Below the pieces are notes generated by a model. That model made no database searches. It was not told where the DNA came from and worked only from the letters and a program-made list of their open reading frames with translations. This document shows, in pieces, positions 45,813-64,000 of a stretch of 64,000 nucleotides of DNA. The stretch's first letter is position 1, and each line of letters starts with the position of its first letter. A program made the position numbers and the translations under genes. Origin of the DNA: an uncultured Gammaproteobacteria bacterium (GTDB taxonomy: Bacteria > Patescibacteriota > Microgenomatia > Daviesbacterales > UBA10151); the NCBI GenBank assembly GCA_964524895.1, contig CAZGFG010000003.1:34023-98022 (forward strand). The letters are read 5' to 3'.

Positions 45813-46913
45813 ATGAAAATCAGCGTATTACAACAAGACTTGCTGCCTGTTCTGCATAGTGTGGCCAGGTCGGTAGGGGTACACGCCAACTTACCTGTCT
45901 TGGATAATTTTCTTTTATCTGTAGACGGAAAAAAGCTAAAGGTTGCCGGAACTAATTTGGAGATTGGGATAATCAAGTATTTACCGGTAGAGGTTTTGGA
46001 AGAAGGGGAGATAACGGTACCGGCTAAAACTTTGGTGGAGTTAATGTCCGGGTTGGGCCAGGTAAAGGTAGAGTTGGAGTCAAAAGGGGAAATGCTTACC
46101 GTAACAAGCGGAAAATTTAAGGCTTCTTTAAACGGCATCGCTGCCTCCGAATTTCCGGTGATACCGGTTTCTGCAGAAGACGGGGTAAGTTTTACCAAAG
46201 AGATTCTGCTGTCAAGCAGTCAGATCCTGTTTGCGGCAGCTGTGGATGAGGGCAGACCAATTTTAACCGGAATCCTGACCTATGCCACCGGTCAAACCCT
46301 AGATTTTGTGGCTACCGATGGCTTTAGGCTGGCGCACCGCAAAGTATCATTGCCCGGCAAAATTAATGAGTTCAAATCCCTTATCCCACGCAGAACCTTT
46401 GAGGAGGTGTTGCGGGTGATTGGGGAAGAAGATGCAGACGAAGTCGTGGTTTCTTCTGCCAAGAATCAAAACCAGGCTATCTTCACTATCGGCAAGAGTG
46501 TTATCTCCTCGAGGTTAATTGAAGGACAGTTTCCTTCATGGGAGAAAATTATCCCGGCCCAGTTTGTTACCAGGGCTATGGTAGATAAAGATAGTTTGCT
46601 CAAGGGAGTAAAATTGGCAGCAGTTTTTGCCCGCTCCGAAGCAAATGTAATAGTTATAAAAACTACTAAAAACCAGCTAATCCTAAAATCTTCGGCTAAG
46701 GAGTTAGGTAGTCAGGAGAACGAGATAGAGGGTAATATTGAAGGTGAGGATTTGGAGATTGCTTTTAATACCAAGTTTTTATTGGATGCCCTATCGGCCT
46801 CACCTGCAACCCAACTGTCTATTGAATTCTCCGGGGCACTTTCCCCAACAGTTGTTAAACCGATTGGGGTAGAAGGGTTGGAATATATAGTAATGCCGGT
46901 GAGGCTGAACTAA
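45813..46913 (+). CDS. dnaN: DNA polymerase III beta sliding clamp
   Basis: 366 aa with a three-domain clamp pattern (MKISVLQQDLLPVLHSV, ...ATDGFRLAHR..., C-terminal ...MPVRLN). Confidence 0.9.
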   Translation: MKISVLQQDLLPVLHSVARSVGVHANLPVLDNFLLSVDGKKLKVAGTNLEIGIIKYLPVEVLEEGEITVPAKTLVELMSGLGQVKVELESKGEMLTVTSGKFKASLNGIAASEFPVIPVSAEDGVSFTKEILLSSSQILFAAAVDEGRPILTGILTYATGQTLDFVATDGFRLAHRKVSLPGKINEFKSLIPRRTFEEVLRVIGEEDADEVVVSSAKNQNQAIFTIGKSVISSRLIEGQFPSWEKIIPAQFVTRAMVDKDSLLKGVKLAAVFARSEANVIVIKTTKNQLILKSSAKELGSQENEIEGNIEGEDLEIAFNTKFLLDALSASPATQLSIEFSGALSPTVVKPIGVEGLEYIVMPVRLN

Positions 46914-47395
46914 ACTCCGCGATATTGGATGGTTTTAAAGTGGTAAATTTTTTCTTCTCCCAAATTTTGGGCGCCGTCAAATTTGGTCTCCGGTTTTATA
47001 AATAAAGTATATTCTGTTCCTACCTGATAAGATTCTTCGGGGGTAATTTTAATAATTTTTCTGTCGCTGCTGGTTTCCAGGCGGTATTTGAATTTGGGGG
47101 TGATTTCATGCTTAAACTCTCCGCTGTTTTCCAAAGGTCTGTTGAATGTGATCTCAATAGGTTGGTTTTGCAAAAGGATATCTGACTGCGCAGATCCGGG
47201 CTTGACAGAAAGGACTTGAGGTTTGTCTGATTGAGGGGTGGGGGCTGGGGAGGCTGAACTACTGGACAGTTTAGTTTTAGTTAGGTTAGAATAAAACAGA
47301 AACCCCACGGCTATTAAAACGATTATCAATAAAAATTTGTAGTTTAAGGCTGGCTTTTGGGAAACAGGACTGATGTTTTTTATTTTGTTTATCAT
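46910..47395 (-). CDS. Membrane-anchored hypothetical protein with a beta-sandwich-like extracellular domain
   Basis: N-terminal TM (FLLIIVLIAVGFLFY), a Ser/Pro linker, then a beta-strand-rich domain (EITFNRPL..., YTLFIKPETKF). Confidence 0.35.
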   Translation of the reverse strand: MINKIKNISPVSQKPALNYKFLLIIVLIAVGFLFYSNLTKTKLSSSSASPAPTPQSDKPQVLSVKPGSAQSDILLQNQPIEITFNRPLENSGEFKHEITPKFKYRLETSSDRKIIKITPEESYQVGTEYTLFIKPETKFDGAQNLGEEKIYHFKTIQYRGV

Positions 47396-47441
47396 AGCTT
47401 TTCTATAGCTGCAAAGATAATAAAAAGAGACTTGTTAGACC

Positions 47442-49268
47442 TCATTTAACCACCTCTAAGTTATATAACCAATCTCGGTTTTCTACACCGTTTTCATGTA
47501 AAAATTTATCGAGCTCCTCATTTGCTAATGTAGTGTTGTTACCATTTAATGTTACGATGAATTTGTTTTCTTCAAAACTATATTGAACAGAAAAATCCGC
47601 TTCATTGTACGGGAGTTTTTTAATTAGCTGGGCTACTGTCTCTCCTTCTTTTCTTCCTCTAACGTCCTCTTCAGATGAATAGGAATAAGAATGTCCGGGT
47701 TGGGGGCCTGTATCTGTTAGATTAGTAGAGGGGGTGGGAGATTGGTCTATTCCCGGACTAGGGGATACAGATTGTCTGCCTTGTTGGTTTTCCAGGAAGT
47801 ATTTAATCGTACTTGTGGCCCTGGGATCAGTTAATATTTGGGTGTGGCCAACGTTGGTGGAGTCATTTCCGGGCAAAGACGGTGCGAGCAGCAAAGCGTC
47901 GCAATTCGGGATACCGTTTGCTCCTCGTCCTAAAGGAAGGGCATACCCAAAACCTGGGATAATTGCCGACTTGGGTTTAACAAAACAATCATCACCGTTT
48001 GTCAAACACAGAAGTCGTACATCGCGCCTATCTCTTAAGATTTCAGCAGTTTTTATATTAAGGCCTGTGGTAGCTTGCTGTCTTTGGGGGGAGCTGGCTA
48101 ATGCAGCCAGATAGGTGGTGGCATCGTTTCCTAGTTGTGTATCTAAGCCTAGTCCGCGCAGATAATTGCTAATTTCTGCTCCGGAGACCCCATTCACCGG
48201 GGCATCCAGCAGTAAGGCAGACCTGATCACGCTATCTCGGTGAGGACCCCTTTCCGGCATTACATTTTCTGTAAGATATTGCCAGGCCGTAAATCCCCCA
48301 AGTGAGTAGCCCAGTAAATCTATATTTTTGTAATACCTCCGGAGCCCGTCGGCCATATCACGTAGTATATCGGCGCTTTTATGTACATCTTGGAATGTAT
48401 CCTTTGGACCGTATAAATTAAGGCTCCATTGGGGCGGTCGGTCGAAAAGTTGAAAAACCCCGCCGCCCGAATAACTAAAACGAGCAACCAAGTCATAGAG
48501 GGGGAGCAGGTCTTGACGCAGTGACTCAAAAGTTGGCCCCAGTCCGATAGGGTCCATCTTAAAGCTACTACCCAAACCGTCTAACAAAATTAGAGCTGAA
48601 GGGGCAGGGTTATCCGGGGCAACTTGACCTTGCAGCTTACCAATTTGCGCCCATGTTTGGAGATATTGGTCAACTGTTATAGGGTTAAAAACCTGAATTT
48701 CGTATACTTTCCGATCACTTTGTAGTGCAACGAGCGCAAAACCTTGACTGGCAAAAATTTGTGTTTCTGCAAGGGGTATCGTCGGACGCTCCCAAAAATC
48801 AGACTTTGGCGGAGGTGCAGTAGACTCGGGAGATCCATAAATGGAGGTAAATTGGGGGGTGTCGACGTAAGCTCCTGGTCCCAGGGTCCCAACTATAGAT
48901 ACCTGTTTAAACCTAGCTACACCATCTTGCCCAGTAATTACTGTATGAGGTCTTTCTGGAATTATTGAGGTGAAGGTATATTTTGTCAGACCGCCCGGCA
49001 AGAATTCTCGTCTGCTGTTAGGCAGGCCTAGGAGCTCTTTATCGGTACTCTCACCTATATTTATCTCTGCAACAAGTTTTCCCACTCCGCTCAAAGGGAG
49101 CAGACGGGTAGGGTCTTGGGGGCTAGCTGCTGGAGCTTCGGTTTGTGCCAGAGTTGCTTCAGGGTGTTGGATAAAGTTGTAGGCAAGAACAGTCCCTCCT
49201 GCCATTAAAGTTAGAAACTTCCCTCTGGTGAGAGAAACATCATCAAACCGTTGTTCTACGTTCTTCAT
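47442..49268 (-). CDS. Secreted alpha/beta-hydrolase (lipase/esterase-like) with a novel C-terminal domain of about 65 aa
   Basis: N-terminal signal-like segment. GxSxG nucleophile elbow LLGYSLGGFTAW. C-terminal ...LIKKLPYNEADFSVQYSFEENKFIVTLNGN...FLHENGVENRDWLYNL is shared with the next gene. Confidence 0.55.
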   Translation of the reverse strand: MKNVEQRFDDVSLTRGKFLTLMAGGTVLAYNFIQHPEATLAQTEAPAASPQDPTRLLPLSGVGKLVAEINIGESTDKELLGLPNSRREFLPGGLTKYTFTSIIPERPHTVITGQDGVARFKQVSIVGTLGPGAYVDTPQFTSIYGSPESTAPPPKSDFWERPTIPLAETQIFASQGFALVALQSDRKVYEIQVFNPITVDQYLQTWAQIGKLQGQVAPDNPAPSALILLDGLGSSFKMDPIGLGPTFESLRQDLLPLYDLVARFSYSGGGVFQLFDRPPQWSLNLYGPKDTFQDVHKSADILRDMADGLRRYYKNIDLLGYSLGGFTAWQYLTENVMPERGPHRDSVIRSALLLDAPVNGVSGAEISNYLRGLGLDTQLGNDATTYLAALASSPQRQQATTGLNIKTAEILRDRRDVRLLCLTNGDDCFVKPKSAIIPGFGYALPLGRGANGIPNCDALLLAPSLPGNDSTNVGHTQILTDPRATSTIKYFLENQQGRQSVSPSPGIDQSPTPSTNLTDTGPQPGHSYSYSSEEDVRGRKEGETVAQLIKKLPYNEADFSVQYSFEENKFIVTLNGNNTTLANEELDKFLHENGVENRDWLYNLEVVK

Positions 49269-49726
49269 ATAACCTCAATTTTTAGGTTTTTAATCCAGTC
49301 TCGACTTTGAATGCCGTTCTCAGACAAAAAACTATCTATCTCTTTATTGCCTGTTTCTTCCGACCCTTTCTTTAAACTAATAGTGAACTGGTTGGTATCA
49401 AAATTATATGACATTGAGGAGTAGCTGCCGTTAAAAGGAAGTTTCGTAATCAGCTTCCCAACGGTAGCACTTTGCTTTACGTAATCAGCTTCTTGCTGCT
49501 GGATTGTTTTAATGCTCTCCTGATATACGACTCCTTGGGATGGGATATTGATAGGCAAGGGGGTACTAATAGGGGATGGAGTTGGCGAGAACAATTGGAT
49601 TGGTTTGGGAGTTACTTGCGGAATATTTTTTGGTCCGATAAACTGTAGGTAAACAAAAGAGGTGAGAATAAAAAGCATTCCTACTGCAGAAACTATATAA
49701 CCTAAATTCTTCTTAATAAAATCCAT
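49265..49726 (-). CDS. Small membrane-anchored protein carrying the same C-terminal domain as the lipase-like protein
   Basis: TM anchor and a Pro-rich linker. C-terminal LITKLPFNGSYSSMSYNFDTNQFTISLKKG...FLSENGIQSRDWIKNL is about 40% identical to the tail of the upstream protein. Confidence 0.4.
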   Translation of the reverse strand: MDFIKKNLGYIVSAVGMLFILTSFVYLQFIGPKNIPQVTPKPIQLFSPTPSPISTPLPINIPSQGVVYQESIKTIQQQEADYVKQSATVGKLITKLPFNGSYSSMSYNFDTNQFTISLKKGSEETGNKEIDSFLSENGIQSRDWIKNLKIEVI

Positions 49727-49733
49727 ATTTTGA

Positions 49734-51737
49734 TTATCTCACTTTCTTCATAGGGTAAGCATAATACCATGGAAAATCAGTTGTATTTTTTAATCGGTTG
49801 GCTGGATTTTCATCGTTCCCATCTCTGTAAGAACAATTGTTAGGATCACGAATGTCAACGACTTTAGTTGCGGGATTGACTGCATCAACCACAAATATAT
49901 GATCTACAGTTAAGGCGTTTTTACAATTGGCGCAGGGAAAAGCCTTAGACGAGCCCAGGATTAAGTAGCCCTTGTTCAAATACTCTTTTGCCAGATCTAT
50001 ATTCAAACGCCCATTATCCGCTATATTTGGTCCTACCGTCATTCCTAGGTTGGACAACCAGGCGGAATTTAATGCCAAAGCTAGGGAGCTTCCAGTGTCT
50101 CCACAGGTTCTAGCTCCTACTGCTTGAAACTGCTGGTCCACCTGTGTGGGTGTCAAGTTAAAGCCAAATCCGCTTAAAAGCATTGCCATAGAAGTAGGTC
50201 CGCAGCCAGCATTGCCCAGAGAGCAAACAGATTGCCAAGCTGTGTTGCCCTGGCAGTAAAAAGTTATATTCTCGTTTGGTGGAGCCAGAGGTTGGGTATA
50301 GCTGTTTGAGATATGTCCGCGGCAGCTTTGCATACTGTTCCAGATATCATCACCGTAGTTATAAGGCCCAGTACAGCTAGCTGCTCCTCCATAGAGCAAA
50401 CATCCATAGTAGGTATTAACCAATGCATTAATAGCACCTTTATTGTTAGTCCAAGCCGGACTCCACTTTCCGTTATTGGTATACCCTAGATTACCCATTT
50501 TCTTCAATATCCACCCAGCACCGACAATGATATTGGCTCTGGGGTCACAATAATCCTCGCGGCTCATAGTAGAAACAGTTTTCCCTATCAGTTTTGCTCC
50601 GGCATCAATACAATCATCACAACTTGCCGGATCTCCTTTGGCAGATTTGGTACCGGGAGGTTGGATTTGCATAATTCCCAAAGCACCGGTAGGGCTTTGC
50701 GCACACTGGTAGCTTTTAATTTGTTCATCAGTCAGGTTGACGGAAGAAGGGGATTCTACCCTGATAAATGCAGCCAAGACGGCTGCCGGGATGTTGGTCA
50801 AATTGGAAGCTTCCCTTATGTAAGTCATTAGCAATGGACTTTTAAAAGATTCATCTTTAGGGTTTTGGTCACTTCTTATAAATTTACAACTTGCTATATC
50901 CTGATTTAAGCCACCTCCCGGGCCCAGATTGAGGTTATCAGGCATAGCGGAAAAGAGCAGGGATCCAAATAAAATTACCCCAATTATTATAAGGACAAGC
51001 TTTGCTTTTGATTTTTTTACCCCCGAGGAAAAGCTACTGGATCCTCGTGCTATATTGTTGGATAAATCTGCCCCATAATTTATCATTGACCCCCCGCGTT
51101 TAAGTATAAAATTACCACCTGCTCCTACCCCGGATCCTAAAAAACCTCCTGCAGAGCGGGGGATCTCCCCTAAAAATCCCATTAACCCTCGGCCCGTACG
51201 GCTAATTGTTTTAGCCGTAACTATCTGGGCTTTGCTGGCAAGGTCTTGAACCGGTGCCAAGCTAACAACTTCGGCAGCCTTGCTGCCTGCTAGCTGTGCC
51301 CCTTCAGAAACCTTCTCTGCCAAATTTGTTTCTTCCCGGGGGATAACAGTTTGGGGGATTGGGGCTGTAGTAGTAGAGGGCTGGGCAACTGGAGGTGGGG
51401 TAGAGGGTTGTTGTGGTAGATCTAAATTTGCCCTTGTTAGTTGTTGGTCAAATTTTTGATTTAAAGCCGCATCTTGGGGATTTTCCCTAAATTGCCCTTG
51501 GGTAATCTGGATAAGATATGGGTCTCTTCTTTCCAGCCCAAGCACCAACTTCTCCGTAAAAACTTTATTATCCGGATAGCTTTTGCTATATAAAGGGAAA
51601 TCAAATCTGGCCCATTTAAAGATAAAAGGGTCATAGGGGAAAGTTCCGTACTTACTTCTGTATACTTTCCATCCTGGGTGCCTAAACTTTTGTCTCAAAG
51701 CATCGGTAATAAAAGCAATACGCTCCTTCTTGTCCAT
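49734..51737 (-). CDS. VirB1-like cell-wall hydrolase: lytic transglycosylase (SLT) domain fused to a papain-fold (C39/CHAP-like) peptidase domain
   Basis: TM anchor. SLT motifs FIRVESPSS and ALGIMQIQP. C-terminal Cys/His pair region CGPTSMAMLL ... DHIFVVDAV. Confidence 0.55.
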   Translation of the reverse strand: MDKKERIAFITDALRQKFRHPGWKVYRSKYGTFPYDPFIFKWARFDFPLYSKSYPDNKVFTEKLVLGLERRDPYLIQITQGQFRENPQDAALNQKFDQQLTRANLDLPQQPSTPPPVAQPSTTTAPIPQTVIPREETNLAEKVSEGAQLAGSKAAEVVSLAPVQDLASKAQIVTAKTISRTGRGLMGFLGEIPRSAGGFLGSGVGAGGNFILKRGGSMINYGADLSNNIARGSSSFSSGVKKSKAKLVLIIIGVILFGSLLFSAMPDNLNLGPGGGLNQDIASCKFIRSDQNPKDESFKSPLLMTYIREASNLTNIPAAVLAAFIRVESPSSVNLTDEQIKSYQCAQSPTGALGIMQIQPPGTKSAKGDPASCDDCIDAGAKLIGKTVSTMSREDYCDPRANIIVGAGWILKKMGNLGYTNNGKWSPAWTNNKGAINALVNTYYGCLLYGGAASCTGPYNYGDDIWNSMQSCRGHISNSYTQPLAPPNENITFYCQGNTAWQSVCSLGNAGCGPTSMAMLLSGFGFNLTPTQVDQQFQAVGARTCGDTGSSLALALNSAWLSNLGMTVGPNIADNGRLNIDLAKEYLNKGYLILGSSKAFPCANCKNALTVDHIFVVDAVNPATKVVDIRDPNNCSYRDGNDENPANRLKNTTDFPWYYAYPMKKVR

Positions 51738-51741
51738 AAGT

Positions 51742-53502
51742 TTAGAGTCTTTGTTTAGCTATTAAATCCGCCGGATTAGAAGTAATCAGTTCGTGTTCCT
51801 GCGGGGAAGCTACCACCCTCATTGCCACATGGGTATTACCGGCAAAAAACAACCCTTGCCCGATACCGGCAGAAAGTAGCAACCTTTGTTCGCCTTCCGA
51901 TAGATTAAACACTTGCCCCAACCGGTCGATAGAGGCAGGAGCCTGTTTTAAAAGCACTTGGATAGAGGAGTTAGAGATGACCTCTTTACCCCGCTCTCCG
52001 GAGAGAAAGTCTTCTACATCTTGAGTAATTGTTGTCAGTCCCAAATAATATTTGCGCGCTCTTTTGGCAATATCCACTAAAAAATTTGCCGAGTCTTCAA
52101 ACCGCATTAAATACCATGCCTCGTCTACTATTAAAATACGTTTTTTTAGCCTGGTGCGTATTTTGGTCCAGATATATTCCAGGATCATGTGCATAGCTAG
52201 GGGGCGTAGTTGGTCTGCCAGGTCCCGGACAGAGAAGACGGTAAAAGAATTGGTAATGTTGATATTTGATTGCGAAGAGAAAATCCCCGAAAGCGATCCT
52301 TTAACAAACCGCTCCAATCTGGCTGCCAAAGATAGGGCGACTTTTTCCTCCATCCCCACCAATACTTTATAAAGGTCTTCCATTAAAGGTGGGGTTTTGG
52401 ATTGGGTTTTAGGGTCATCGGTGATCCCCTTTAACTGGTAGGTTTGTTTTAAGGCCCTGTCGAGGATGGCCGACTCATCCGGGTCTAGATTTCCCAGCAC
52501 TAATTTGAGAAATGCTGTAAGGGATAGTATCTTTCTGCCCAACTCATTTTCTCCGCTTAAGACTTCGGCAGAAAGGTCAAAAGGGTTTATTTTAATAGGG
52601 GATGATGCGGAAAAATTAAGATACTCTCCTCCCACTGCCTCGCAAAGAGGCAGGTATTCCTGTTCCGGGTCAATGGTGATAACCTCTGTCCCAAACATCA
52701 AAGACCGGACAGCCTCCAGTTTAACAAAATAACTCTTACCAGCGCCGCTTTTGGCGAATACGACCGAGTTCGCATTTTCCAAAGAAAAACGGTCAAAAAG
52801 TATCAGCGACTCGTTATGCTCATTAATCCCGTACATGATCCCCTCGTTGGCAGTTAACTCGGATGAGGCAAACGGGAAAGTAGTAGCCAAGGAGGTAGTA
52901 TCCATATTATGAGTGAGGTTTAAAAGATCCTGGCCTAAAGGCAGAGTAGACTTGAACCCGTCTTCCATCTGCAGGGTTGTTGCTTGCGAAGACATTGATA
53001 ACGAAGCAAGGGTGGACTCAACCAGCTTGGAGGTGTTTTTTAGATCGTCTATATTGATCGCAGGAACGGTGACATACAAAGAGAATTGGAAAAACCGCTC
53101 TACTCCCTTAACCAACTGGTCCTGCAGGGCTCTGGCATCATCAAGAGCTACCTCCACTGCCGGATCTACAGCGTGGCCTCTTTCCATGTCTGTTTGGATA
53201 GTGGCCTCCATTTCTCCGACTTTTCTTTTAAGATCATCCAATACTCCTTTTGACTGTGAAGGGTAGATGAACATTGAAATAAATAAAGAATGGTCAAATG
53301 AGATTAAAGGTTCCAACCAGTTAGGTTCTATAAACCTTGGATAATTCGACACAAAATAAGTCCGGTAGAATCTGTTATTAATCCGCAGATCGTTAAAATC
53401 CACCTCTATTTCGGCCGGAGCAATTACATCCTGGATATTGAAATTGGGGGTTTGATCATCGGGCATATTCTTGCTCTTTTTAAAATGCGAAAATATATTC
53501 AT
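51742..53502 (-). CDS. Type IV secretion ATPase VirB4/TrbE/CagE, central and C-terminal ATPase part
   Basis: RFYRTYFVSNYPRFIEPNWLEPLISFDHSLFISMFIYP matches the VirB4 mid-region pattern. Walker A FAKSGAGKSYF and Walker B ILIVDEAW. C-terminal VirB4-like (ITQDVEDF, HELITSN). Confidence 0.75.
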   Translation of the reverse strand: MNIFSHFKKSKNMPDDQTPNFNIQDVIAPAEIEVDFNDLRINNRFYRTYFVSNYPRFIEPNWLEPLISFDHSLFISMFIYPSQSKGVLDDLKRKVGEMEATIQTDMERGHAVDPAVEVALDDARALQDQLVKGVERFFQFSLYVTVPAINIDDLKNTSKLVESTLASLSMSSQATTLQMEDGFKSTLPLGQDLLNLTHNMDTTSLATTFPFASSELTANEGIMYGINEHNESLILFDRFSLENANSVVFAKSGAGKSYFVKLEAVRSLMFGTEVITIDPEQEYLPLCEAVGGEYLNFSASSPIKINPFDLSAEVLSGENELGRKILSLTAFLKLVLGNLDPDESAILDRALKQTYQLKGITDDPKTQSKTPPLMEDLYKVLVGMEEKVALSLAARLERFVKGSLSGIFSSQSNINITNSFTVFSVRDLADQLRPLAMHMILEYIWTKIRTRLKKRILIVDEAWYLMRFEDSANFLVDIAKRARKYYLGLTTITQDVEDFLSGERGKEVISNSSIQVLLKQAPASIDRLGQVFNLSEGEQRLLLSAGIGQGLFFAGNTHVAMRVVASPQEHELITSNPADLIAKQRL

Positions 53503-54269: not shown

Positions 54270-54273
54270 AATT

Positions 54274-55383: not shown

Positions 55384-55529
55384 AGGACAGATTTTCTCTT
55401 ACTATAGACTCTTATATAACGTGAAAAAATATGCGTCTAGAGATACAAACTGGGTCATTTGCGAGCAATCGTGCCCTTTTGCCTTCTAAACTATCAACTA
55501 GTGGTAAACAATTTTCCTATTGACAGTAG

Positions 55530-55725: not shown

Positions 55726-57066
55726 ATGACAACTGCAGAAACGAGAGCTGAATATTTTCCCAGGATTGCAGCAAGAGAGGCAAATTTGCCCCCTACACGG
55801 CCTCACAGCCCCGATATTTGGCGCTATATAGAAGAGGAATCTAGGCTCAAGAATACCCCTTTTAACTTGCATCTGGAATGGAAATCTTTTACTGCAAACT
55901 TTAAAGACGGTTTGGCAGAAGGTTTAACTGCCCCGGAGGCAGCCCTGAAGGCGTACCGTGGAACGGAGTTGAATATCAGGAGCTTTATGCGGGAGTTTGG
56001 GGAGCAGGCTTTGGTCCTGCCTCATCTGATCGGGGAAAAAGATGGGCAGATAGTTAACAGCTTTGACGGCAAGCCTATTCTCCCCAGGATTACCAAGAAT
56101 GAAAGAGGCGGGTCAGTATTTTTTGCTTCCCAGCAGCTCCAAACCTTTTTCCAGATGCATAAAGAGACTGGAGCGATGGCATTTTATACCAACCCTGACG
56201 GTTGGATTGGTGTTTTTGATAAAAATGGGAAACCGATTCTGGATAAGGAGGGTAAACCATTCGTTTATAAAAGTAGCGAGACATTTGTTTTCTGGCGTGG
56301 AGAAAACGGCAACTTAAGAGGGGTAACTATTGTAACGGATATGGATAGAGACAAGCATAAGAGTTTGCTGGCATCATTTGGAGTAAAGGATAATATGGAT
56401 GGTGAAAGTGAAGAAGAGGAGATTATGAATATTGTCAGCCATCCCGCTTTCATAGCTGGTGGCATGGACAAATTAAACACCCCTGTTGATGTGGCAAAAA
56501 AAATTGTAGAGATCCGGGGCACAAAAGATATTAGGATAGAACAGATGGATGGCAGTATAGAATACAAACCGGTTTCTGATATTTTTAAGGACTTGGATAG
56601 ATTAGATGAGCTGTTACTTTTTAACGAAACAGGAGAGAGATATTTAGAAGACCTTAAGGAGATGGTACTGACCAATGCCGATCATTTAGAGGATCCGAGA
56701 ATACAACTTTGGGTGATTAGAGGGATAGAGGATGTAATACTTAGACTGACTAGGCAAATCCGCAAAAGGGGAGCCGGCCAGGAGATTATTTTTAACCAGG
56801 CAATTACATTAAGGCAGAAGTCTGTGGAGCAACCTAACTTTGAAAGTGAGGATTTTTCCGAGGAGGTAAAATTTTTGGCCAATAGAGTGGGCTGTGCTCC
56901 GGGATCCTCGCGGAGTAGTATAAGAGGCTATGGAGCTGGAAGGATATCTGGAGATGGGATAGAAAGCACATTTTTGCCGGGAAAGTGTATTAATTGTGGA
57001 AAAGCGGGTTTGGTAGAATGTGGCTGGTGCCGTGGTTGTGTTATGAAAACGTCTCTCAGCGGTTGA
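55726..57066 (+). CDS. Hypothetical soluble protein with a C-terminal Cys-rich zinc-ribbon-like tail; candidate T4SS-associated cargo
   Basis: Start moved to the internal ATG (MTTAETRAEYF). The 89 upstream codons of the ORF track cover the structured leader. C-terminal CINCGKAGLVECGWCRGC. No signal peptide or TM. Confidence 0.45.
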   Translation: MTTAETRAEYFPRIAAREANLPPTRPHSPDIWRYIEEESRLKNTPFNLHLEWKSFTANFKDGLAEGLTAPEAALKAYRGTELNIRSFMREFGEQALVLPHLIGEKDGQIVNSFDGKPILPRITKNERGGSVFFASQQLQTFFQMHKETGAMAFYTNPDGWIGVFDKNGKPILDKEGKPFVYKSSETFVFWRGENGNLRGVTIVTDMDRDKHKSLLASFGVKDNMDGESEEEEIMNIVSHPAFIAGGMDKLNTPVDVAKKIVEIRGTKDIRIEQMDGSIEYKPVSDIFKDLDRLDELLLFNETGERYLEDLKEMVLTNADHLEDPRIQLWVIRGIEDVILRLTRQIRKRGAGQEIIFNQAITLRQKSVEQPNFESEDFSEEVKFLANRVGCAPGSSRSSIRGYGAGRISGDGIESTFLPGKCINCGKAGLVECGWCRGCVMKTSLSG

Positions 57067-57134
57067 CAGTTAAGTCAGATAGACTCTACACTAAAATTGA
57101 CCATAGTGTGATAGAGGTTTAAAATACGCGCACT

Positions 57135-60100
57135 ATGGCAGAAAGACTAATGCCTGAATCTGCTCCACAAATTATCTTAGCCAGTCGTAGTGGAAAAGAG
57201 ATTGGCAGCGTGCCCATTTCTCCTGTAGAGAGGGAAACTTCTCCAAAATCAGAATTCGAGCATATCAGAGATCAGTACCTTGGTGCACAAGATAGGTATT
57301 GGGGTTTATGCAGCGTAGATTCGACAAGATTGCCTTCTTCTGCAGCTATATCTCACCGATTGTCGTTGGACGAAGCTAGAAACACCCTTAAAGGTTATAA
57401 AGATCAGATTATGGAGTTAGTAAGGGAAGCAGAAGATGGGCATGACCTTCTGGTTGAAATACGTCAAGAACAAGGGGATCGCTATAAAGAGTTAAGAAGT
57501 CTTCCTCCTGCCTCTCGGTCGGATAATTTGGGAAAGATTTTTGCAGGAATAGATTGGGAAAAGGGATTGTGGCAATTACCTGGTTTTAGGGCTTTGGAAT
57601 CAAAGTTTAAAGGGTTACCTAACTTCTTGTGGGAGGAAACGATACGGAGCACAGCCAAGGATATAAGGCGGGACTCTTTGACTGAGGAAGTAAGAGATAG
57701 ACTAATAAGTAGAAAAGATCCTAGGGTAAGTATAGAGCCGGATGTTGATGTTGGAGACCATATGTTTGTAGAGCTAAAACTTCAGAGGGAAATAGATAGG
57801 TTGGTTGAATCAAAAGTAGCCCTCTCTCCTTATATGGAGCAGGTAAGATTTCGGGTTGAAGAGGAAAGCGAAATTATTCCGGCAGGGTCTGAATGGCTAA
57901 ATTACGCGGAGAAACAAGTACCCAACGAGGCAATTGGTAAGGTTTATGAAAAAGTGGAAGAGATAAGAAGAGAAAGTGACCGTATGCTTTTTGTAGCGGT
58001 AGTGCGCTTAAGAGACGAGTATGGGATAGATATTGAGCCTGATCATAAGATTGTGGAGAGGATGAGAACTTTAACCGAAGCAAGAATGAATGCCAAAGGG
58101 GGAGCCGAAACAGTTAATAAAGGCGGTTTTGAATACATGCTTCATTTTCGGGAAAATTACGCCAATAATTTCAGAGGCCATTGGGCGGCTACCTATGCGG
58201 AAGACCCGAATGTGGCGCTGGCTTTCCATTATCTAAGCCATGGAGTAGATACCCAAATTCTTAAGGATAGTAACCAGGGAGAATATTTTAGAGGGTGCCC
58301 AAAAGAGGTGGCCAGACCAAAAAATGACGAAATTCAAAGGTACCAAAAGACGGCTCAAGACAAGATGATAATAGGACTGGCAAGTCATGAGCTGGTTCTG
58401 AAGGCTCGGTATGATGCAAGAGTAAATGATCCGGAGGAAAGAAGAAAAATGGTTTTATTGTCGAGGTCAGACCGTCAGAAGAGAGAGAAGCAGATTTTTG
58501 CTGAAGAACGGGACCGATTCCTTAGCGAACATCCCGTTTTTCAGGAAACCAAAGCTAGATGGGACAGGAGGGATGCAGCGGAAGCAGCTACGAGAGGCAT
58601 ACCGGATTTGGCGAAGTTGGTCAATGTTGATGGGAGATTAGTTGATGATAAGACTAGAAGAGATGCAGTCGAAAGAATAATTTTGGATAAGATAGGAGAC
58701 CATGATCCTTTAGTGGATAATCTCGCCTACCTTAGCGTAATTAACAGGACTAAGAATGGTGAAATAGATAACCAACAAAAAGGTGTGCTTATTGGGGAGA
58801 TTAGAAAAAGGGGAATTTCCGACCAAGAGAAAGCAGCGCTTATCAATGAGGTAGAGGAGGGGAGGGTTACTCAAGAGCAAAAAGATTTATTAACCGACAA
58901 AAAACTATGGGAGTGGGTAGAAGTCAGAAACAAAGCGCATAAGGATCAAGGCTGGTACCCTACGCGTTGGGACGAAATTAGGTATTTAATTGACCGCCCA
59001 GAAAAAGTACTCCTTAGAGCTTTAAGCATGGAAGAGTTTTTACAGATGTATCAATCGGTAGATCTTCCCTCCCTTACTCCTAAAGAAAGAGAAAAAAGGC
59101 TCAAAGCGGCTATCCAATCATTGCAAACAGCTCAAACTTATATGTTATTTGAAGGTATAGCGAGTAGGTATGGTGGTACTAGGCTTGAGATAAAAGATGA
59201 AAACGGGAAAGAAATTTACAGCCCATTCTTTGCAGAACTGTGGAACATATTAGATAAAATTGAGGAGGTAGATTTTTCCACTCTGCCTCAAGGAACCGGA
59301 GATGACGTAGACAGTAAGAAGATAGAATGGTACAAGAATCAACAGCATACCGGAGAGACCGCTATAAGTTACATTGCCGGTGACGGAAAGAAGAGGGAAT
59401 TTGTAATTAAAGGAAAATTTGTTGTTAGAGATCTATTCCGGCGTTATAAAATGTCTGGGCGTTTGCCGATGTGGTCATATTATTTGACTGCAGACGATAC
59501 CGCTCTAAGGTTTTTTGCTGATGCAATGGGGGTATCCCCGGAGAGGAAAAGAGAATTAACAGAGATTCTAGAAGGAGAGAGAAGGATATTAAAGCAGGTT
59601 AAAGATAAATTGGTAGATGCTTTTATGTTGGATCCCGATAATAACCCTCATAACCTTAAGGTTAAAGCACGCAGGGTTAATTGGAAGGGCGGCAATATCG
59701 ACTATAGAAAACTTTATGATGCTAGAATGTATTGGTCGACCTCCGGAGGAGCAGTTGCTACTGACCTCTTACCTATTATGGATCTTGGGATTGAAGACCA
59801 GTGGCAGATGGAGGGGCAGGAGGATGCCAGAGAGTTTACAAGCTGGGTGTGTAGAAGAGATGAATTAGAGGATAGGGAGGTAGAATTATACAACGTGTTA
59901 AGCCCCGTAGATTACAACAGGATGTTAGGGGGAGCCGAGGAGCTAAAAAAGTTGATAGGAGGGGGTAAGGTCAAAGATCGACAGGTCCAAGGCCTTCTTA
60001 ATGATTTGCTGAACGGAGCTTATAAGATTAGAGTTATGGCAATTGACTTAGGATTTTCTGACTGGCTTCAAGATCAACCTTTAGAAAATCTGAGATGGAC

Positions 60101-60542
60101 AAACGAAATGTACGATAAACTAAATGAGGAGCACAAAGCTGGTATGAATAAAGCTTTGCTGGTAGCAGCAGACGTATTAAAGAATCTCACAGACGTTTTC
60201 GATGCTAGAAGGTTGGTAGAAGTTCGTTATCCGAGAGCGCCTAAAAATTGGCTATATGATAATACAGAGATTTGGTATAGGGTGAAAAAATTTATCAGAT
60301 ACTCCGAGCAGTTTAGCGAGCCACCTTTTGCATATGCGACTCAAGCCAGAACCGAATTTGCTATCCGCTTATACGAAGATTACCTGGAGGCAGCTGGGTA
60401 TATTTTGCCCAGCAAACCTAGTAAAGGCAAACCTATTAAAGCCAGTATTGAATTTAGAGAGTCTTTATTCCCAGCGGAGGTTAGAGAAGAACGAGCAAAC
60501 AGAGCATACGACGCAAAGAGCAATACAATTGTCCCTGCGTGA
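57135..60542 (+). CDS. Large (1135 aa) highly charged hypothetical protein with no recognisable domains; candidate T4SS effector or cargo
   Basis: Uninterrupted 3.4-kb ORF with no TM or signal peptide and no P-loop. GC looks slightly above the local background. Co-oriented with the preceding ORF and convergent on the VirB6-like gene with a 22-bp gap. Confidence 0.5.
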   Translation: MAERLMPESAPQIILASRSGKEIGSVPISPVERETSPKSEFEHIRDQYLGAQDRYWGLCSVDSTRLPSSAAISHRLSLDEARNTLKGYKDQIMELVREAEDGHDLLVEIRQEQGDRYKELRSLPPASRSDNLGKIFAGIDWEKGLWQLPGFRALESKFKGLPNFLWEETIRSTAKDIRRDSLTEEVRDRLISRKDPRVSIEPDVDVGDHMFVELKLQREIDRLVESKVALSPYMEQVRFRVEEESEIIPAGSEWLNYAEKQVPNEAIGKVYEKVEEIRRESDRMLFVAVVRLRDEYGIDIEPDHKIVERMRTLTEARMNAKGGAETVNKGGFEYMLHFRENYANNFRGHWAATYAEDPNVALAFHYLSHGVDTQILKDSNQGEYFRGCPKEVARPKNDEIQRYQKTAQDKMIIGLASHELVLKARYDARVNDPEERRKMVLLSRSDRQKREKQIFAEERDRFLSEHPVFQETKARWDRRDAAEAATRGIPDLAKLVNVDGRLVDDKTRRDAVERIILDKIGDHDPLVDNLAYLSVINRTKNGEIDNQQKGVLIGEIRKRGISDQEKAALINEVEEGRVTQEQKDLLTDKKLWEWVEVRNKAHKDQGWYPTRWDEIRYLIDRPEKVLLRALSMEEFLQMYQSVDLPSLTPKEREKRLKAAIQSLQTAQTYMLFEGIASRYGGTRLEIKDENGKEIYSPFFAELWNILDKIEEVDFSTLPQGTGDDVDSKKIEWYKNQQHTGETAISYIAGDGKKREFVIKGKFVVRDLFRRYKMSGRLPMWSYYLTADDTALRFFADAMGVSPERKRELTEILEGERRILKQVKDKLVDAFMLDPDNNPHNLKVKARRVNWKGGNIDYRKLYDARMYWSTSGGAVATDLLPIMDLGIEDQWQMEGQEDAREFTSWVCRRDELEDREVELYNVLSPVDYNRMLGGAEELKKLIGGGKVKDRQVQGLLNDLLNGAYKIRVMAIDLGFSDWLQDQPLENLRWTNEMYDKLNEEHKAGMNKALLVAADVLKNLTDVFDARRLVEVRYPRAPKNWLYDNTEIWYRVKKFIRYSEQFSEPPFAYATQARTEFAIRLYEDYLEAAGYILPSKPSKGKPIKASIEFRESLFPAEVREERANRAYDAKSNTIVPA

Positions 60543-60564
60543 GTCATATAGATATTGGAGATAA

Positions 60565-62211
60565 CTAAACATTCTTTTTCCAGGGCCAGGGAGGGTTTTT
60601 CTTGAGCTCTTGTACCTTAGAAAGGCCTCCCAATGTTGTGCGATAAGTCGGTTCGCCTTTAGTTCTCATCACCTCTGTTTGGTCAAATAAGCCTCTAACG
60701 CTACCGCTAGCCTCCTTTATTCCACCAGTTCCCTGATTAATATAACTTTGCCCTCTCCCCATACCTGTATTTATAGCTTGTTCAATCATTTGTCCTCCTG
60801 GTCCGGGCTTACCGATAGCTTTACATATTATATCAGGAATAGCCGGAGCTGCGGTTAATGCTCCAAATGCCAGCAGTATTTGTACAAATTTTAAATTAAG
60901 ACCGCCCAGCAGTGGAAGAGCTGCGCTATCTGTTATATTAGGAGCTCCAGATATACTTAAAGGGCCAACTGTTTGTTGGAGTACAAAGGCAGCAAAGTAA
61001 AATATTGCCATAACAGCTGGGAAGGACAATACATTACAAAGCATATTTCTAACCCAATCGGTAGCAATGCTTTGCCTACCGGGCAAAGAGGCTGCCAAAA
61101 AGTGAAAAGGGGCGGTGATAGTTAAAAAGATGATACTTAAGTAGCATTGGATTAATCTAAGAAGCAGCCTTAACATGGAGTAGATCAAAGCAGCTAGAGC
61201 GATGACCCAAAAGAATGTTCCAATTATTTGCGAAGTAAAAATGGTTGCAGCCCCTATCCCGGCAATTAATCCTAGAATGGGGCTTACAAACGACGAATAA
61301 GGTCCTGCTATTTGCCCTACCTGGGCTCCGAATTGAAAAGCTACTACTCCTGCAAGGAGATGTATTGCAGTGTTAGCTGTTCCCTGAATGTTGCTTAAGA
61401 CTAGATCAATGGCATCTACAATTTCTCCGCGTGGGAACAAGGAAATAAATTGACTGAATATAGTCAGAGCGTTTTGGTTTCCAGTGTCTCTTATCAAGCT
61501 TGCTTGAGGATTTCCTGAAGTTTGGGCTGTTTGAAAGTAGTATCCAACCAGATTAGTACCAATGAAAGCAAAGTCTATAATTAAGGCTGCAAAAAAATAG
61601 CTGAAAGTAATCAATATAAGTCCTATAACCAGTCCCGGCAAGGCTGCCTGTACGGTAATAACAGTTTGAGGGTTAACCCTTTGTCTAAACATTACCATAA
61701 GCCCAATGACAACAAACACGATTGCCATAATGATATAAGAAATATTCCTGGAAACTGCCCAGAGGCTGATAATGGGGGAAAGAACTTGGTTACCTGATCC
61801 TCCAATAGTTTGTGCGTATGCTTCTTTTACAAAACCTAAATCCTGCCGCATAAAAACAAAATATTCATATGTTCGCACAGGAGGATTTAGATAAAGTGCT
61901 CCTATATAACCAATAGCTGAACCCAACACTCCATAATTTGGCTCATATTTTGGTAAGTTTCTTGTGATATCGAAAGTTTGACAAGGATATCCAAGAATAG
62001 ATTGTCCTACTAGGACGCAACTGTAAGTATGAGTCAGGCTGTTTACCAAGGCGTCAGTATATTGAGGGGAAACAGAAGGCATATAGGAATCAGAATAAGT
62101 TGCTGTACCGGTAGCTATAGGTGTAGTTTGGGCATAAACAGGAACAGTAAACAGTAAAAAGTAAAAAGTAAAAAGTACAGCAGCGATTATAAATTTTTTT
62201 GGGGCAGACAT
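60565..62211 (-). CDS. VirB6/TrbL-like polytopic inner-membrane T4SS channel protein
   Basis: Signal peptide (AVLFTFYFLLFTVPVYA), an extracytoplasmic N-domain of about 120 aa, then 7-8 TM helices with a long hydrophobic core region. C-terminal Gly-rich cytoplasmic tail. Confidence 0.5.
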   Translation of the reverse strand: MSAPKKFIIAAVLFTFYFLLFTVPVYAQTTPIATGTATYSDSYMPSVSPQYTDALVNSLTHTYSCVLVGQSILGYPCQTFDITRNLPKYEPNYGVLGSAIGYIGALYLNPPVRTYEYFVFMRQDLGFVKEAYAQTIGGSGNQVLSPIISLWAVSRNISYIIMAIVFVVIGLMVMFRQRVNPQTVITVQAALPGLVIGLILITFSYFFAALIIDFAFIGTNLVGYYFQTAQTSGNPQASLIRDTGNQNALTIFSQFISLFPRGEIVDAIDLVLSNIQGTANTAIHLLAGVVAFQFGAQVGQIAGPYSSFVSPILGLIAGIGAATIFTSQIIGTFFWVIALAALIYSMLRLLLRLIQCYLSIIFLTITAPFHFLAASLPGRQSIATDWVRNMLCNVLSFPAVMAIFYFAAFVLQQTVGPLSISGAPNITDSAALPLLGGLNLKFVQILLAFGALTAAPAIPDIICKAIGKPGPGGQMIEQAINTGMGRGQSYINQGTGGIKEASGSVRGLFDQTEVMRTKGEPTYRTTLGGLSKVQELKKNPPWPWKKNV

Positions 62212-62261
62212 ATATTAAGAGTAGACCAAAAGCATTGTACTTTGCAACTTAAATCTTCTGC

Positions 62262-62594
62262 TTAGGGTTTGGCTGATGGGCATGTAGGGAAGTTGGGTAA
62301 ATTGTTGCACAGAATGCTTAAGTCAAATCCGGTAATACCCGGTACCCCGGCAAAGGTGGCAATAAGTTGAAGAATCAACCAGGCTACTGCCAAAAATAAT
62401 ATCCCCAACAATGCCCAAGTTAAGGCTTGACCGGCTGCCTGCAATGCTTTTGGTTCCCCTCCGGAGGTTAAAAATTTAATACCACTGACAATCAGCATGA
62501 TAAAAAGAGCTACAAAAGCAAGCCCTACCGAAAAGGAGATAATTCTGGCAAATAAATCTTCAAGCTCTTTTAAGCCGGCAGGAGGTGGCCCCAT
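62262..62594 (-). CDS. VirB2/TrbC-like pilin paralog 1 (no signal peptide)
   Basis: Hairpin of two hydrophobic helices around the loop FLTSGGEPKALQAAGQ. Tandem with three similar genes. Confidence 0.5.
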   Translation of the reverse strand: MGPPPAGLKELEDLFARIISFSVGLAFVALFIMLIVSGIKFLTSGGEPKALQAAGQALTWALLGILFLAVAWLILQLIATFAGVPGITGFDLSILCNNLPNFPTCPSAKP

Positions 62595-62639
62595 ACAATA
62601 AATTTAGCATTATAAGAAGAAAGTTATCAATCCCTAGTA

Positions 62640-63035
62640 TTAGGGTTGTCTGGTGGGGGTGGGTATAGTGAACTGGGTAATGCTGGGGAAGCCCAAAAAT
62701 TGAGCTGCTACAGTAGCAAGGGCAAAAGCCACAGCCAAAACTGCCAAACCGATTAGAGCATTCAGGATTTTATTCCTGGCTTTACCGACTGCCTCCTTTT
62801 CACCGCCTGATGTGATCCACTCAAATGCTCCCCAAACCAACATAGCCAAAACTGCAATCACCGCAATAATAAAGGATAAAGTTAAAACATTGCTGATAAA
62901 ATTGCCCAAATCAGTATAGCCCAAATTAGTAGAGCCTTGTCTAGGAGGGGTTATGTTAAGAGGAACATCAGCAAATGCCACTGTTGCCGAAGATAAAAAG
63001 CCTAAAGTGGACAATCCTGCAACCATTTTTTTCAT
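62640..63035 (-). CDS. VirB2/TrbC-like pilin paralog 2
   Basis: Signal peptide MKKMVAGLSTLGFLSSATVAFA. Helix 1 ...VLAMLVWGAFEWITSGGEKEAVGKARNKI, then helix 2 LNALIGLAVLAVAFALATVAA. Confidence 0.55.
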   Translation of the reverse strand: MKKMVAGLSTLGFLSSATVAFADVPLNITPPRQGSTNLGYTDLGNFISNVLTLSFIIAVIAVLAMLVWGAFEWITSGGEKEAVGKARNKILNALIGLAVLAVAFALATVAAQFLGFPSITQFTIPTPTRQP

Positions 63036-63092
63036 AATCTAATCCTATCATAGGCAAACAAATTTTGCTTGTCAATAGCTTAAATGGGGAGA

Positions 63093-63500
63093 TTATTTTG
63101 TAGGATCAGTTTGCAGAATAGCTCTGCCGTAATCTAAATTATAGATATCTTGATTAACAAAGAAGTGAAATCCGGTGAATTCTCCTATAAGCGCCAAAAC
63201 GGCAAAAGCAATAGCCAAAAGAGCAATGCCGATTAAGGCACTGGTAATCCTTTTTTGAGCAGAAGCTATCTTTTCTTTCTCTCCGCCGGATATCAACCAC
63301 TCAAATGCTCCCCAAATTAACATAAAGATCAAAGCTACCCCTGCTATTGAATAGATTAAGGTAATTAAGTTGGACAAAAACAAACTTATTCCTGCTGCTC
63401 CTGTTTTATCTTGGTCTAAAAAAGGCCGCAGCTCTGGTGGGGGACTAACAGTCCCGAATATGTCTTTGACATCTTTACTTGCTTGAGATAACAGCTTCAT
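63093..63500 (-). CDS. VirB2/TrbC-like pilin paralog 3 (no signal peptide)
   Basis: IFMLIWGAFEWLISGGEKEKIASAQKRITSALIGIALLAIAFAVLALI. Confidence 0.55.
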   Translation of the reverse strand: MKLLSQASKDVKDIFGTVSPPPELRPFLDQDKTGAAGISLFLSNLITLIYSIAGVALIFMLIWGAFEWLISGGEKEKIASAQKRITSALIGIALLAIAFAVLALIGEFTGFHFFVNQDIYNLDYGRAILQTDPTK

Positions 63501-63502
63501 TT

Positions 63503-63883
63503 TTATCCTCCTATCAGTTGCAAATCCTTTATTCCAAAAAGGCTAGCCAGTAAAAATTGGATAATTAGAAAAGTAGCCATCAATAGTACAAATCCTATAA
63601 TAGCATGTGTGATCATTTTTTGGGCCTCCTGTAGTTGTTCTTTCTCGCCTCCGGAAGTAAGGTATTTAAAAGCCCCCCAGATAAAATAGACAACTACGGC
63701 AGCAGCAGCCACAGAGAAGGTAGGGGCTACCAAATAGTTTGTACCGGACCCCAAGTCTTTAATATCCCCAAATCCGAAAGTGTCTCCTATGTCTACCTTA
63801 GCCAGAACCGGAGAAGCAAAAAATAGACTGCCGGTCGCTGTTACAAGCCCGAGGATAAACATAAAGATTCTTCTTTGATTCAT
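63503..63883 (-). CDS. VirB2/TrbC-like pilin paralog 4
   Basis: Signal peptide MNQRRIFMFILGLVTATGSLFFASPVLA, then VVVYFIWGAFKYLTSGGEKEQLQEAQKMITHAIIGFVLLMATFLII. Confidence 0.55.
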   Translation of the reverse strand: MNQRRIFMFILGLVTATGSLFFASPVLAKVDIGDTFGFGDIKDLGSGTNYLVAPTFSVAAAAVVVYFIWGAFKYLTSGGEKEQLQEAQKMITHAIIGFVLLMATFLIIQFLLASLFGIKDLQLIGG

Positions 63884-64000
63884 GGGTTAACCCCTTCCAA
63901 CGGCACCCCTCCTTTAATGGGGAAAATACCTGCTGCCCATTGGGTGACCAGATAGGCCAATATAACAATTACCAGACCCACCAACGCCCAAGTGATACGG
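63880..64000 (-). CDS. 3' end of a fifth VirB2/TrbC-like paralog, truncated by the window edge
   Basis: Reverse-strand translation ...RITWALVGLVIVILAYLVTQWAAGIFPIKGGVPLEGVNP* resembles the C-terminal helix and tail of the other paralogs. Its TGA stop overlaps the ATG of paralog 4 (ATGA). Confidence 0.45.
   Translation of the reverse strand, partial: RITWALVGLVIVILAYLVTQWAAGIFPIKGGVPLEGVNP

Follow-up and report, generated by a model that had tools for sequence, protein, structure and literature searches.

A probable Patescibacteria-type type IV secretion locus with an embedded cobalamin-riboswitch module beside dnaN in Candidatus Daviesbacteria

The gene block next to dnaN

The window analysed here is a 64,000-nt stretch of contig CAZGFG010000003.1, and the block that occupies its positions 46910-64000 is very probably a chromosomal, Patescibacteria-type type IV secretion system (T4SS) of Candidatus Daviesbacteria, derived from the MPF_FATA group, with no relaxase or coupling protein at the locus and with a module predicted to be switched by cobalamin (B12). 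Open reading frames (ORFs) of the window were scanned with Pfam, NCBIfam and PADLOC profiles and its DNA with Rfam, and an identical metagenomic contig, L001, made 3.4 kb of DNA readable past the window end. The secretion genes are arranged in two operons on the minus strand, separated by two genes on the opposite strand.

The VirB4 ATPase (586 aa; 51742-53502, minus strand) was recognised by Pfam (P-loop_TraG at 2.5e-28, plus AAA_10), by NCBIfam, whose best model was the CD1110-type VirB4-like conjugal ATPase (386.8 bits; curated cut-off 325), and by a PDB sequence search, in which 4AG5, the VirB4 C-terminal domain, was the sole match (E 5.2e-46). Its translation displays the Walker A (AKSGAGKS) and Walker B (ILIVDEAW) motifs on which an initial annotation, made from the sequence before any database search, had based the same assignment. 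By these matches, the protein is classified as a true monoderm (MPF_FATA, CD1110-type) VirB4. It also matches the NCBIfam profile of CedB, an archaeal DNA-import ATPase (1.2e-13). The initial annotation had named clustering with FtsK or HerA as a possible objection; the NCBIfam CD1110 and PDB 4AG5 matches lend no support to an FtsK, HerA or VirD4 identity.

Compared with full-length CD1110-type VirB4, the 586-aa protein is devoid of the first ~180 residues. Directly upstream is an ORF absent from the initial annotation, which encodes a TrsD-like protein of 256 aa (53499-54269, minus strand; NCBIfam) and whose stop overlaps the virB4 start. In the CD1110 VirB4 profile, positions 27-182 are covered by residues 29-194 of this protein and positions 183-733 by the 586-aa protein. 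Based on this complementary coverage and on the overlap of the two adjacent genes, both ORFs are interpreted as encoding one split VirB4, the TrsD-like protein and the 586-aa body together reconstituting, at the level of the profile, a single full-length CD1110-type VirB4. This fits the literature, in which TrsD is said to bear a remote similarity to the N-terminal part of VirB4 (PMC12102498).

The first gene of the VirB4 operon encodes a PrgI/VirB3-like protein (369 aa; 54274-55383, minus strand). Its match to Pfam PrgI (PF12666, 5.7e-9, 36.8 bits for a cut-off of 27) and its two hydrophobic helices, which form a transmembrane (TM) hairpin, agree with the VirB3-like two-helix protein initially annotated, and a long C-terminal extension ends in a CarboxypepD_reg-like immunoglobulin (Ig) domain. 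On the other side of virB4 is the gene of a VirB1-like cell-wall hydrolase (667 aa; 49734-51737, minus strand) that combines a TM anchor (helix 242-269), an SLT lytic transglycosylase domain (23.4 bits, cut-off 21.3) and a papain-like peptidase domain (Peptidase_C39_2, 32.4 bits, cut-off 24); with both domains above their Pfam cut-offs, the SLT plus C39 architecture proposed for this protein is upheld. It is followed by genes for a membrane-anchored protein of 153 aa (49265-49726, minus strand) and for a 608-aa protein (47442-49268, minus strand) with a GYSLGG motif and Abhydrolase_6/1 matches below the Pfam cut-off. These two proteins have a common C-terminal region of ~110 residues (37% identity, E 6e-20), which bears a weak resemblance to DUF4825. 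The initial annotation had listed lipase-like proteins in the plural; the label can be retained for the 608-aa protein as an alpha/beta-hydrolase-like product and does not extend to its 153-aa neighbour, which has only the C-terminal domain in common with it. The last gene of the operon encodes a 161-aa membrane-anchored protein with an Ig-like Big_5 domain (46910-47395, minus strand; Pfam 3.4e-8) and an N-terminal hydrophobic helix, homologues of which occur in only 7 related loci. The genes downstream of virB4 overlap or almost abut genes of the virB4 operon on the same strand.

The second operon is composed of pilin genes and of a gene encoding a polytopic membrane protein. Four tandem genes (62262-63883, minus strand) encode VirB2-like pilins of 110, 131, 135 and 126 aa, each with two hydrophobic helices and a match to Pfam T4SS_pilin (PF18895, 1.3e-8 to 4.4e-8, all above cut-off), which supports the VirB2-like topology suggested for these small hairpin proteins. 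A fifth pilin gene (113 aa) is cut by the window edge, with its last 39 codons at 63881-64000 (minus strand), and is seen whole on L001; the figure of at least five pilins given initially is thus four complete genes in the window, and five only if the truncated one is counted. Beyond the window, L001 completes the operon with this 113-aa pilin and a 385-aa protein, and the cluster ends ~1.6 kb past the window at a divergent SpoIID gene. Pairwise identities among the six pilin-like sequences (the four complete ones, that of 113 aa and the pilin portion of the 385-aa protein) range from 26 to 44%, with a mean of 34%. The 385-aa product (L001 1898-3055), encoded by the first gene of the operon, carries a signal peptide, a Cys-rich domain of ~280 aa and a C-terminal pilin hairpin; this pilin fusion may be a pilus-tip component or an adhesin.

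The last gene of the pilin operon encodes the polytopic membrane protein (548 aa; 60565-62211, minus strand). Its top structural match is TrwI/VirB6 (R388 TrwI in the stalk complex), at 13% identity, and one of its 19 homologues matches Pfam TrbL (E 0.0015); the protein itself has no match in Pfam, NCBIfam or PADLOC, and none in PDB sequence and profile searches. It is longer than TrwI and has a Cys-containing N-terminal exodomain. There is moderate support for considering it VirB6-like by fold, in line with the VirB6/TrbL-like polytopic protein initially proposed.

The block starts directly after dnaN (45813-46913, plus strand; Pfam DNA_pol3_beta domains), as had been noted: dnaN runs towards the final gene of the VirB4 operon, the 3' ends of the two sharing 4 nt (46910-46913), with no terminator-like site between them. 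Profile searches confirmed the origin side of the locus, with yidC, yidD and rnpA on the minus strand to the left of dnaA (43824-45158, plus strand; Pfam Bac_DnaA 1.1e-65). A perfect DnaA box lies directly upstream of dnaA (43792-43800), and the spacer downstream of dnaA contains a cluster of two perfect boxes and one with a single mismatch (45160-45200, plus strand), which is a candidate for the oriC core. The only three perfect DnaA boxes in all 64 kb, at 43792, 45180 and 45192, flank dnaA, and the cumulative GC skew is lowest at 42-44 kb of the window; the origin is therefore placed at or beside dnaA. Directly after the box cluster, between dnaA and dnaN, is a gene encoding a Holliday-junction-resolvase-like endonuclease (45347-45799, plus strand; Pfam Endonuc_Holl 1.7e-8), which is found at the same position in 8 Daviesbacteria-type loci. 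Both T4SS operons (46910-55383 and 60565-64000, minus strand) run head-on to the rightward replication fork, an orientation that is unusual for a conserved, presumably important, origin-proximal gene set. A high gene dosage, as initially suggested, would follow from the origin-proximal position, but head-on transcription of both operons is a point which this argument ignores.

No VirD4, VirB11, relaxase, recombinase or transposase was detected in the scanned ORFs of the window, a set comprising all those of at least 245 aa; the other genes are either housekeeping or without assignment. The window contains no tRNA gene and no att-like flanking repeats, and no conjugation or integration gene was found in the 3.4 kb past its end. 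VirB4 is the sole T4SS-type ATPase detected in the window, where the remaining P-loop/AAA matches correspond to dnaA and to an SbcC/Rad50-like protein, and Pfam and NCBIfam gave no match to VirB5, VirB7, VirB9, VirB10 or VirB11 at the locus. The absence of VirD4, VirB11 and relaxase, as well as of flanking integrase or att repeats, was thus correctly recognised from the start, and the conjugative set that might have been located just beyond the window is missing from the 3.4 kb, the cluster stopping at SpoIID.

A predicted cobalamin riboswitch and the opposite-strand module

Between prgI and the virB6-like gene, the plus strand carries a regulated module. A promoter-like site (TTGACA-18-TATTCT, 55520-55549; consensus match only) is followed by a cobalamin riboswitch aptamer of the AdoCbl-II class (55582-55658, plus strand; RF01689, 36.5 bits, E 5.5e-5 in 64 kb), which is the sole Rfam match of the window at gathering threshold and lies in the leader of a gene encoding a 445-aa protein. 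The aptamer ends 70 nt before the ATG at 55729, a distance that is 10-91 nt in other loci, on the same strand. A terminator-like hairpin with a T-run (55692-55720, plus strand; pattern-level only) lies between the aptamer and the start codon, and the upstream segment UUCUUCGAG can pair with the 5' arm of this hairpin, which is a candidate expression platform. This arrangement suggests a terminator-type transcriptional OFF switch, by which a shortage of B12 would lead to expression of the module. B12-OFF riboswitches typically control acquisition genes or B12-independent substitutes.

Cobalamin-clan (CL00101) aptamers were identified upstream of the 445-aa gene family in 11 of the 12 loci with enough upstream DNA, the window counted. 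Four were detected by RF00174 above its gathering score of 31.5 bits, in loci L091 (699-927, 61.3 bits), L007 (3237-3461, 53.5 bits), L015 (7552-7697, 51.4 bits) and L099 (1874-2010, 49.2 bits), and two by RF01689, for which the gathering score is 36.5 bits, in L011 (7876-7954, 41.6 bits) and L010 (5762-5841, 36.5 bits). The others are under threshold: L096, L095 and L093 with RF01482 (44.6, 35.6 and 34.5 bits; gathering score 50) and L090 with RF01689 (7838-7912, 31.3 bits). L014 is the sole family locus of the 12 with no aptamer match, none being found at E <= 0.01. When the window, L010 and L011 aptamers were compared, the 16 pairs in four helices were all canonical, except for one position gapped in L010 and L011, and 5 of the pairs were compensatory, with both sides changed. 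No Rfam match of any family at gathering threshold was obtained in 8 Microgenomatia loci outside Daviesbacteria; L008, L009 and L013 gave, like L014, no Rfam match at E <= 0.01, and L012 gave none.

As in known cobalamin-riboswitch regulons (btuB and other B12 transporters, or B12-independent isozymes like metE and nrd genes), a cobalamin-clan aptamer in the 5' leader is followed by a terminator-like hairpin and then by the gene, and the element is tied to one gene family across loci. Unlike in these regulons, no transporter, B12-binding or enzyme domain can be recognised in the regulated proteins, which are encoded within a T4SS locus. The literature searched contained no paper linking a cobalamin riboswitch to Patescibacteria or to their T4SSs.

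The mechanical ORF call for the first gene of the module was a 535-aa product starting at TTG 55459 and running across the aptamer and the terminator. Alignments of the family begin only past the riboswitch and terminator region. With both elements ahead of ATG 55729, the TTG start is considered an artefact and the protein to be 445 aa long (55729-57066, plus strand). A gene caller applied to an identical Logan contig (L087, 531 aa) extends the gene likewise, which is likely an annotation artefact in public records. The 445-aa protein is a cytoplasmic product with a PAS-like core and a C-terminal four-Cys zinc ribbon, and belongs to a family of 137 clusters. It has no match in Pfam, NCBIfam or PADLOC; Pfam searches with 47 family members gave nothing consistent, and PDB sequence and profile searches with the family recovered the zinc ribbon only. 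The second gene encodes a 1135-aa cytoplasmic protein (57135-60542, plus strand) that is fast-evolving, consists of 34% charged residues and has neither a signal peptide nor a TM helix. It had no match in Pfam, NCBIfam, PADLOC or PDB, and a word-indexed search of 5.8e9 proteins returned only the protein itself. Position and BLAST identified very distant relatives at the same site in L014 (22% identity) and L091 (23-27% identity, E 5e-26); the giant proteins found at this position in L009, L011, L012 and L099 have no detectable link to it. The initial description of two large unknown ORFs holds for both genes, and needs correction for the start of the first one, which had been over-called.

The position of the module is conserved. 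In the nine loci where that side is visible (the window, L007, L010, L011, L014, L015, L090, L091 and L099), prgI is in each case divergent upstream of the 445-aa family gene; in L099, the module is again located between prgI and a virB6 homologue (44% identical). Elsewhere in the 80 T4SS loci compared (see below), no member of the family was detected. A giant charged protein is usually encoded next, with unrelated genes following on the short contigs L096 and L098. In L014 and L007, the homologues of the 445-aa protein are ~29% identical to that of the window, against VirB4 identities of 73% and 80%, indicating that the module proteins evolve much faster; such a rate would resemble that of host-interaction proteins.

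Several other features of this region were observed. In L091 (2471-4360), two PhdYeFM-PIN toxin-antitoxin pairs separate the gene of the 445-aa family from the giant gene, showing that the spacer tolerates insertions. In the window, the 1135-aa gene and virB6 are convergent, with 22 nt between their stops (60542-60565) and no terminator-like site there; if the B12-regulated transcript read through, it would run antisense to the virB6 and pilin genes. Over the two plus-strand genes (56000-60000), the GC skew is +0.28 and the AT skew +0.10 to +0.19, values explained by the purine-rich coding strand of highly charged proteins. A defence-island interpretation of the module was rejected, PADLOC having found nothing.

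Conservation of the locus and relation to known T4SSs

VirB4 homologues with 77-100% identity are annotated as Candidatus Daviesbacteria or Microgenomates, and all named organisms among the 120 best matches listed (at least 77% identical) belong to the Candidate Phyla Radiation (CPR). A scan of one genome per species detected at least 596 VirB4 loci, mostly from Microgenomatia, the best 80 of which (57-80% identical) were kept for comparison; these come from Daviesbacteria, Curtissbacteria, Levybacteria, Woesebacteria, Gottesmanbacteria, Shapirobacteria and other groups. Synteny was counted by tblastn of the window proteins against these related loci, with loci having enough flank as denominators. 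A TrsD-like gene lies directly upstream of virB4 in 67 of 73 loci, and prgI is found within 3.5 kb of virB4 in 57 of 59. Of the 50 loci with at least 9 kb of flank, 47 have dnaN downstream of virB4 at a distance of up to 6.4 kb (median 3 kb), and the two genes are convergent in 51 of 55 related loci. This conserved order beside dnaN and dnaA indicates that the origin-proximal position is ancestral to Microgenomatia and excludes a recent integrative and conjugative element (ICE), in agreement with the stable chromosomal inheritance initially put forward. Many metagenome-assembled genomes (MAGs) with a Microgenomatia-type VirB4/dnaN locus (L010, L013, L018, L019, L021, L023, L070 and others) are labelled Gammaproteobacteria, Pseudomonadales, Nevskiaceae or Methanoperedens; such non-CPR labels, carried by GTDB-representative MAGs, are probably mislabelled records or contaminated bins.

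A survey by Quinonero-Coronel et al. (2025) described a monophyletic clade of Patescibacteria VirB4 related to MPF_FATA (PMC12102498). According to this survey, homologues of TrsD and PrgI are abundant in the phylum and arrays of VirB2-like pilins are especially common in Microgenomatia; relaxases are nearly absent, homologues of VirD4, the type IV coupling protein (T4CP), exist and are usually far from virB4, and the T4SS is located near dnaA and dnaN, for which a gene-dosage effect was proposed (PMC12102498). VirB6 homologues were reported as scarce in Microgenomatia, where only 22.6% of VirB3 homologues were near virB4 (PMC12102498). The T4SS repertoire, the non-conjugative character and the origin-proximal site of the present locus are thus already published for the phylum (PMC12102498), and the analysis supports the initial suggestion of a non-conjugative T4SS belonging to a small-genome episymbiont.

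The locus resembles the T4SSs of the Patescibacteria clade in its MPF_FATA-like VirB4 with an adjacent TrsD, its PrgI/VirB3 and VirB6 components, the cell-wall hydrolase next to virB4, the tandem array of divergent PF18895 pilins, the lack of a relaxase at the locus and the chromosomal site near dnaA and dnaN. It departs from the Microgenomatia surveyed (PMC12102498) in having both VirB6 and VirB3 within the locus, VirB6 being recognisable by fold alone, and in carrying the cobalamin riboswitch with the 445-aa/1135-aa module, which the text of that paper does not contain. With monoderm MPF_FATA systems (pCF10 Prg/Pcf, pGO1 Trs and the C. difficile CTn2/CD1110-type ICEs), it has in common the VirB4 family, PrgI, TrsD, a bifunctional VirB1 analogue with SLT and cysteine-peptidase domains (cf. 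PrgK/TraG) and the lack of a VirB7/9/10 outer-membrane core. In contrast to these systems, it possesses VirB2-like pilins, which they lack, and occupies a fixed chromosomal site beside oriC; relaxase, T4CP, oriT, the surface adhesin PrgB and integrase are all absent from it. The hairpin pilins and the polytopic VirB6-like protein are reminiscent of diderm VirB/Trw systems (A. tumefaciens VirB, R388 Trw), from which the locus differs by the absence of VirB5, VirB7, VirB9, VirB10, VirB11 and VirD4.

Interpretation and alternative explanations

Several observations weigh against the assignment of the whole block to a Patescibacteria-type T4SS with a B12-switched module. The TrsD profile match of the 256-aa protein (4.9e-6) is under its curated cut-off, as is the CarboxypepD_reg match of the PrgI/VirB3-like protein (3.2e-5), and the score of the window aptamer exactly equals the Rfam gathering threshold (36.5). 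No VirB8-like component was identified at the locus, and a VirD4 or a relaxase may be encoded elsewhere in the genome, beyond the window and the adjacent 3.4 kb. For the 608-aa hydrolase-like, 153-aa and Big_5 genes, as well as for the B12 module, gene order is the only basis for a putative involvement in secretion.

This last point leads to the question of which genes belong to the system. The T4SS may be limited to PrgI, TrsD, VirB4 and the hydrolase together with the pilins and VirB6, and the remaining genes may be unrelated occupants of a variable spacer. The Big_5, 608-aa and riboswitch-module genes are detectable in Daviesbacteria-type loci only, the virB6-prgI spacer varies in content and can accommodate toxin-antitoxin pairs, as in L091, the giant proteins found there are sometimes without detectable homology to each other, and the 445-aa family gene also precedes unrelated genes (L096, L098), all of which would be expected from such neighbours. 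They would not account as easily for a 445-aa family gene that is divergent from prgI in nine of nine visible loci and found nowhere else in the 80 T4SS loci, or for downstream genes that overlap or almost abut the virB4-operon genes on the same strand, and we regard this alternative as conceivable, though doubtful. That the module proteins act with or through the T4SS, either as adaptor and cargo or effector or as import factors, in order to gain B12 or B12-dependent products from the host, is an equally tentative proposal. A related but somewhat less likely scenario is that the T4SS is itself an importer of DNA, nucleotides or a cofactor, comparable to H. pylori ComB or archaeal Ced, and not a protein exporter; the B12 module would adapt it to cofactor scarcity. 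It draws on the CedB match of VirB4 (1.2e-13), on the lack of a coupling protein or relaxase at the locus, on the B12-OFF switch, of a type typical for acquisition genes, that sits inside the locus, and on the speculation of a 2025 review that the T4SS and its pilus serve as a conduit for exchange with the host and for the uptake of host molecules (PMC12857230). However, the CedB match is far weaker than the matches to conjugative VirB4, the module proteins show no identifiable substrate-binding or transporter domain, and the direction of transport is not readable from sequence. In Southlakia epibionticum ML1, the genetically tested example of this kind of T4SS, the T4SS and pilin array were, according to this review, essential for epibiotic growth (Wang 2023, via PMC12857230), and the essentiality of the T4SS was independent of ComEC-mediated DNA uptake (PMC12857230).

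By far the least probable explanation is that of a degenerate or domesticated ICE remnant, still mobile or recently fixed, whose missing genes lie outside the window. The CD1110 family of VirB4 is typical of ICE and plasmid conjugation systems, the G+C content of the block (0.42-0.46) is slightly above that of most of the window (0.36-0.43), and ~35 kb of the source contig and the remaining genome lie outside the analysed DNA. Yet the same gene order beside dnaN and dnaA recurs in many Microgenomatia candidate phyla, with VirB4 57-84% identical, the block is not flanked by an integrase, a transposase, a tRNA or direct repeats, the cluster stops at the housekeeping gene SpoIID, and relaxases are nearly absent from the phylum (PMC12102498). 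This explanation, largely refuted, was rejected on synteny.

For the Patescibacteria-type T4SS itself, a working model can be drawn by analogy with known systems. PrgI/VirB3 would tether a VirB4 hexamer to the membrane, the VirB6-like protein would form the membrane channel, and the hydrolase, with its SLT and papain-like domains, would open the peptidoglycan. The pilins may assemble into a pilus or conduit reaching the host bacterium, through which exchange would take place instead of the conjugative export of DNA; the role initially suggested, protein delivery or cell contact, would fit such a machine. The T4SS locus has been fixed beside oriC since the Microgenomatia ancestor, and in the Daviesbacteria lineage an opposite-strand module, predicted to be switched on by its riboswitch when B12 is scarce, is embedded between the two T4SS operons.

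These data extend the 2025 survey in three respects. The VirB6 component considered missing in Microgenomatia appears to be present, too divergent for sequence profiles and recognisable by its fold; TrsD and the 586-aa VirB4 are predicted to make up one full-length VirB4, which would give TrsD a concrete structural role; and a cobalamin riboswitch is consistently found, inside the locus, ahead of a previously unannotated family divergent from prgI. Through the riboswitch module, a connection of the T4SS with a host-derived cofactor becomes testable, and candidate cargo or accessory proteins can be named. Should the module proteins indeed act with or through the T4SS, they would provide the first regulatory and candidate-substrate handle on the function of patescibacterial T4SSs.

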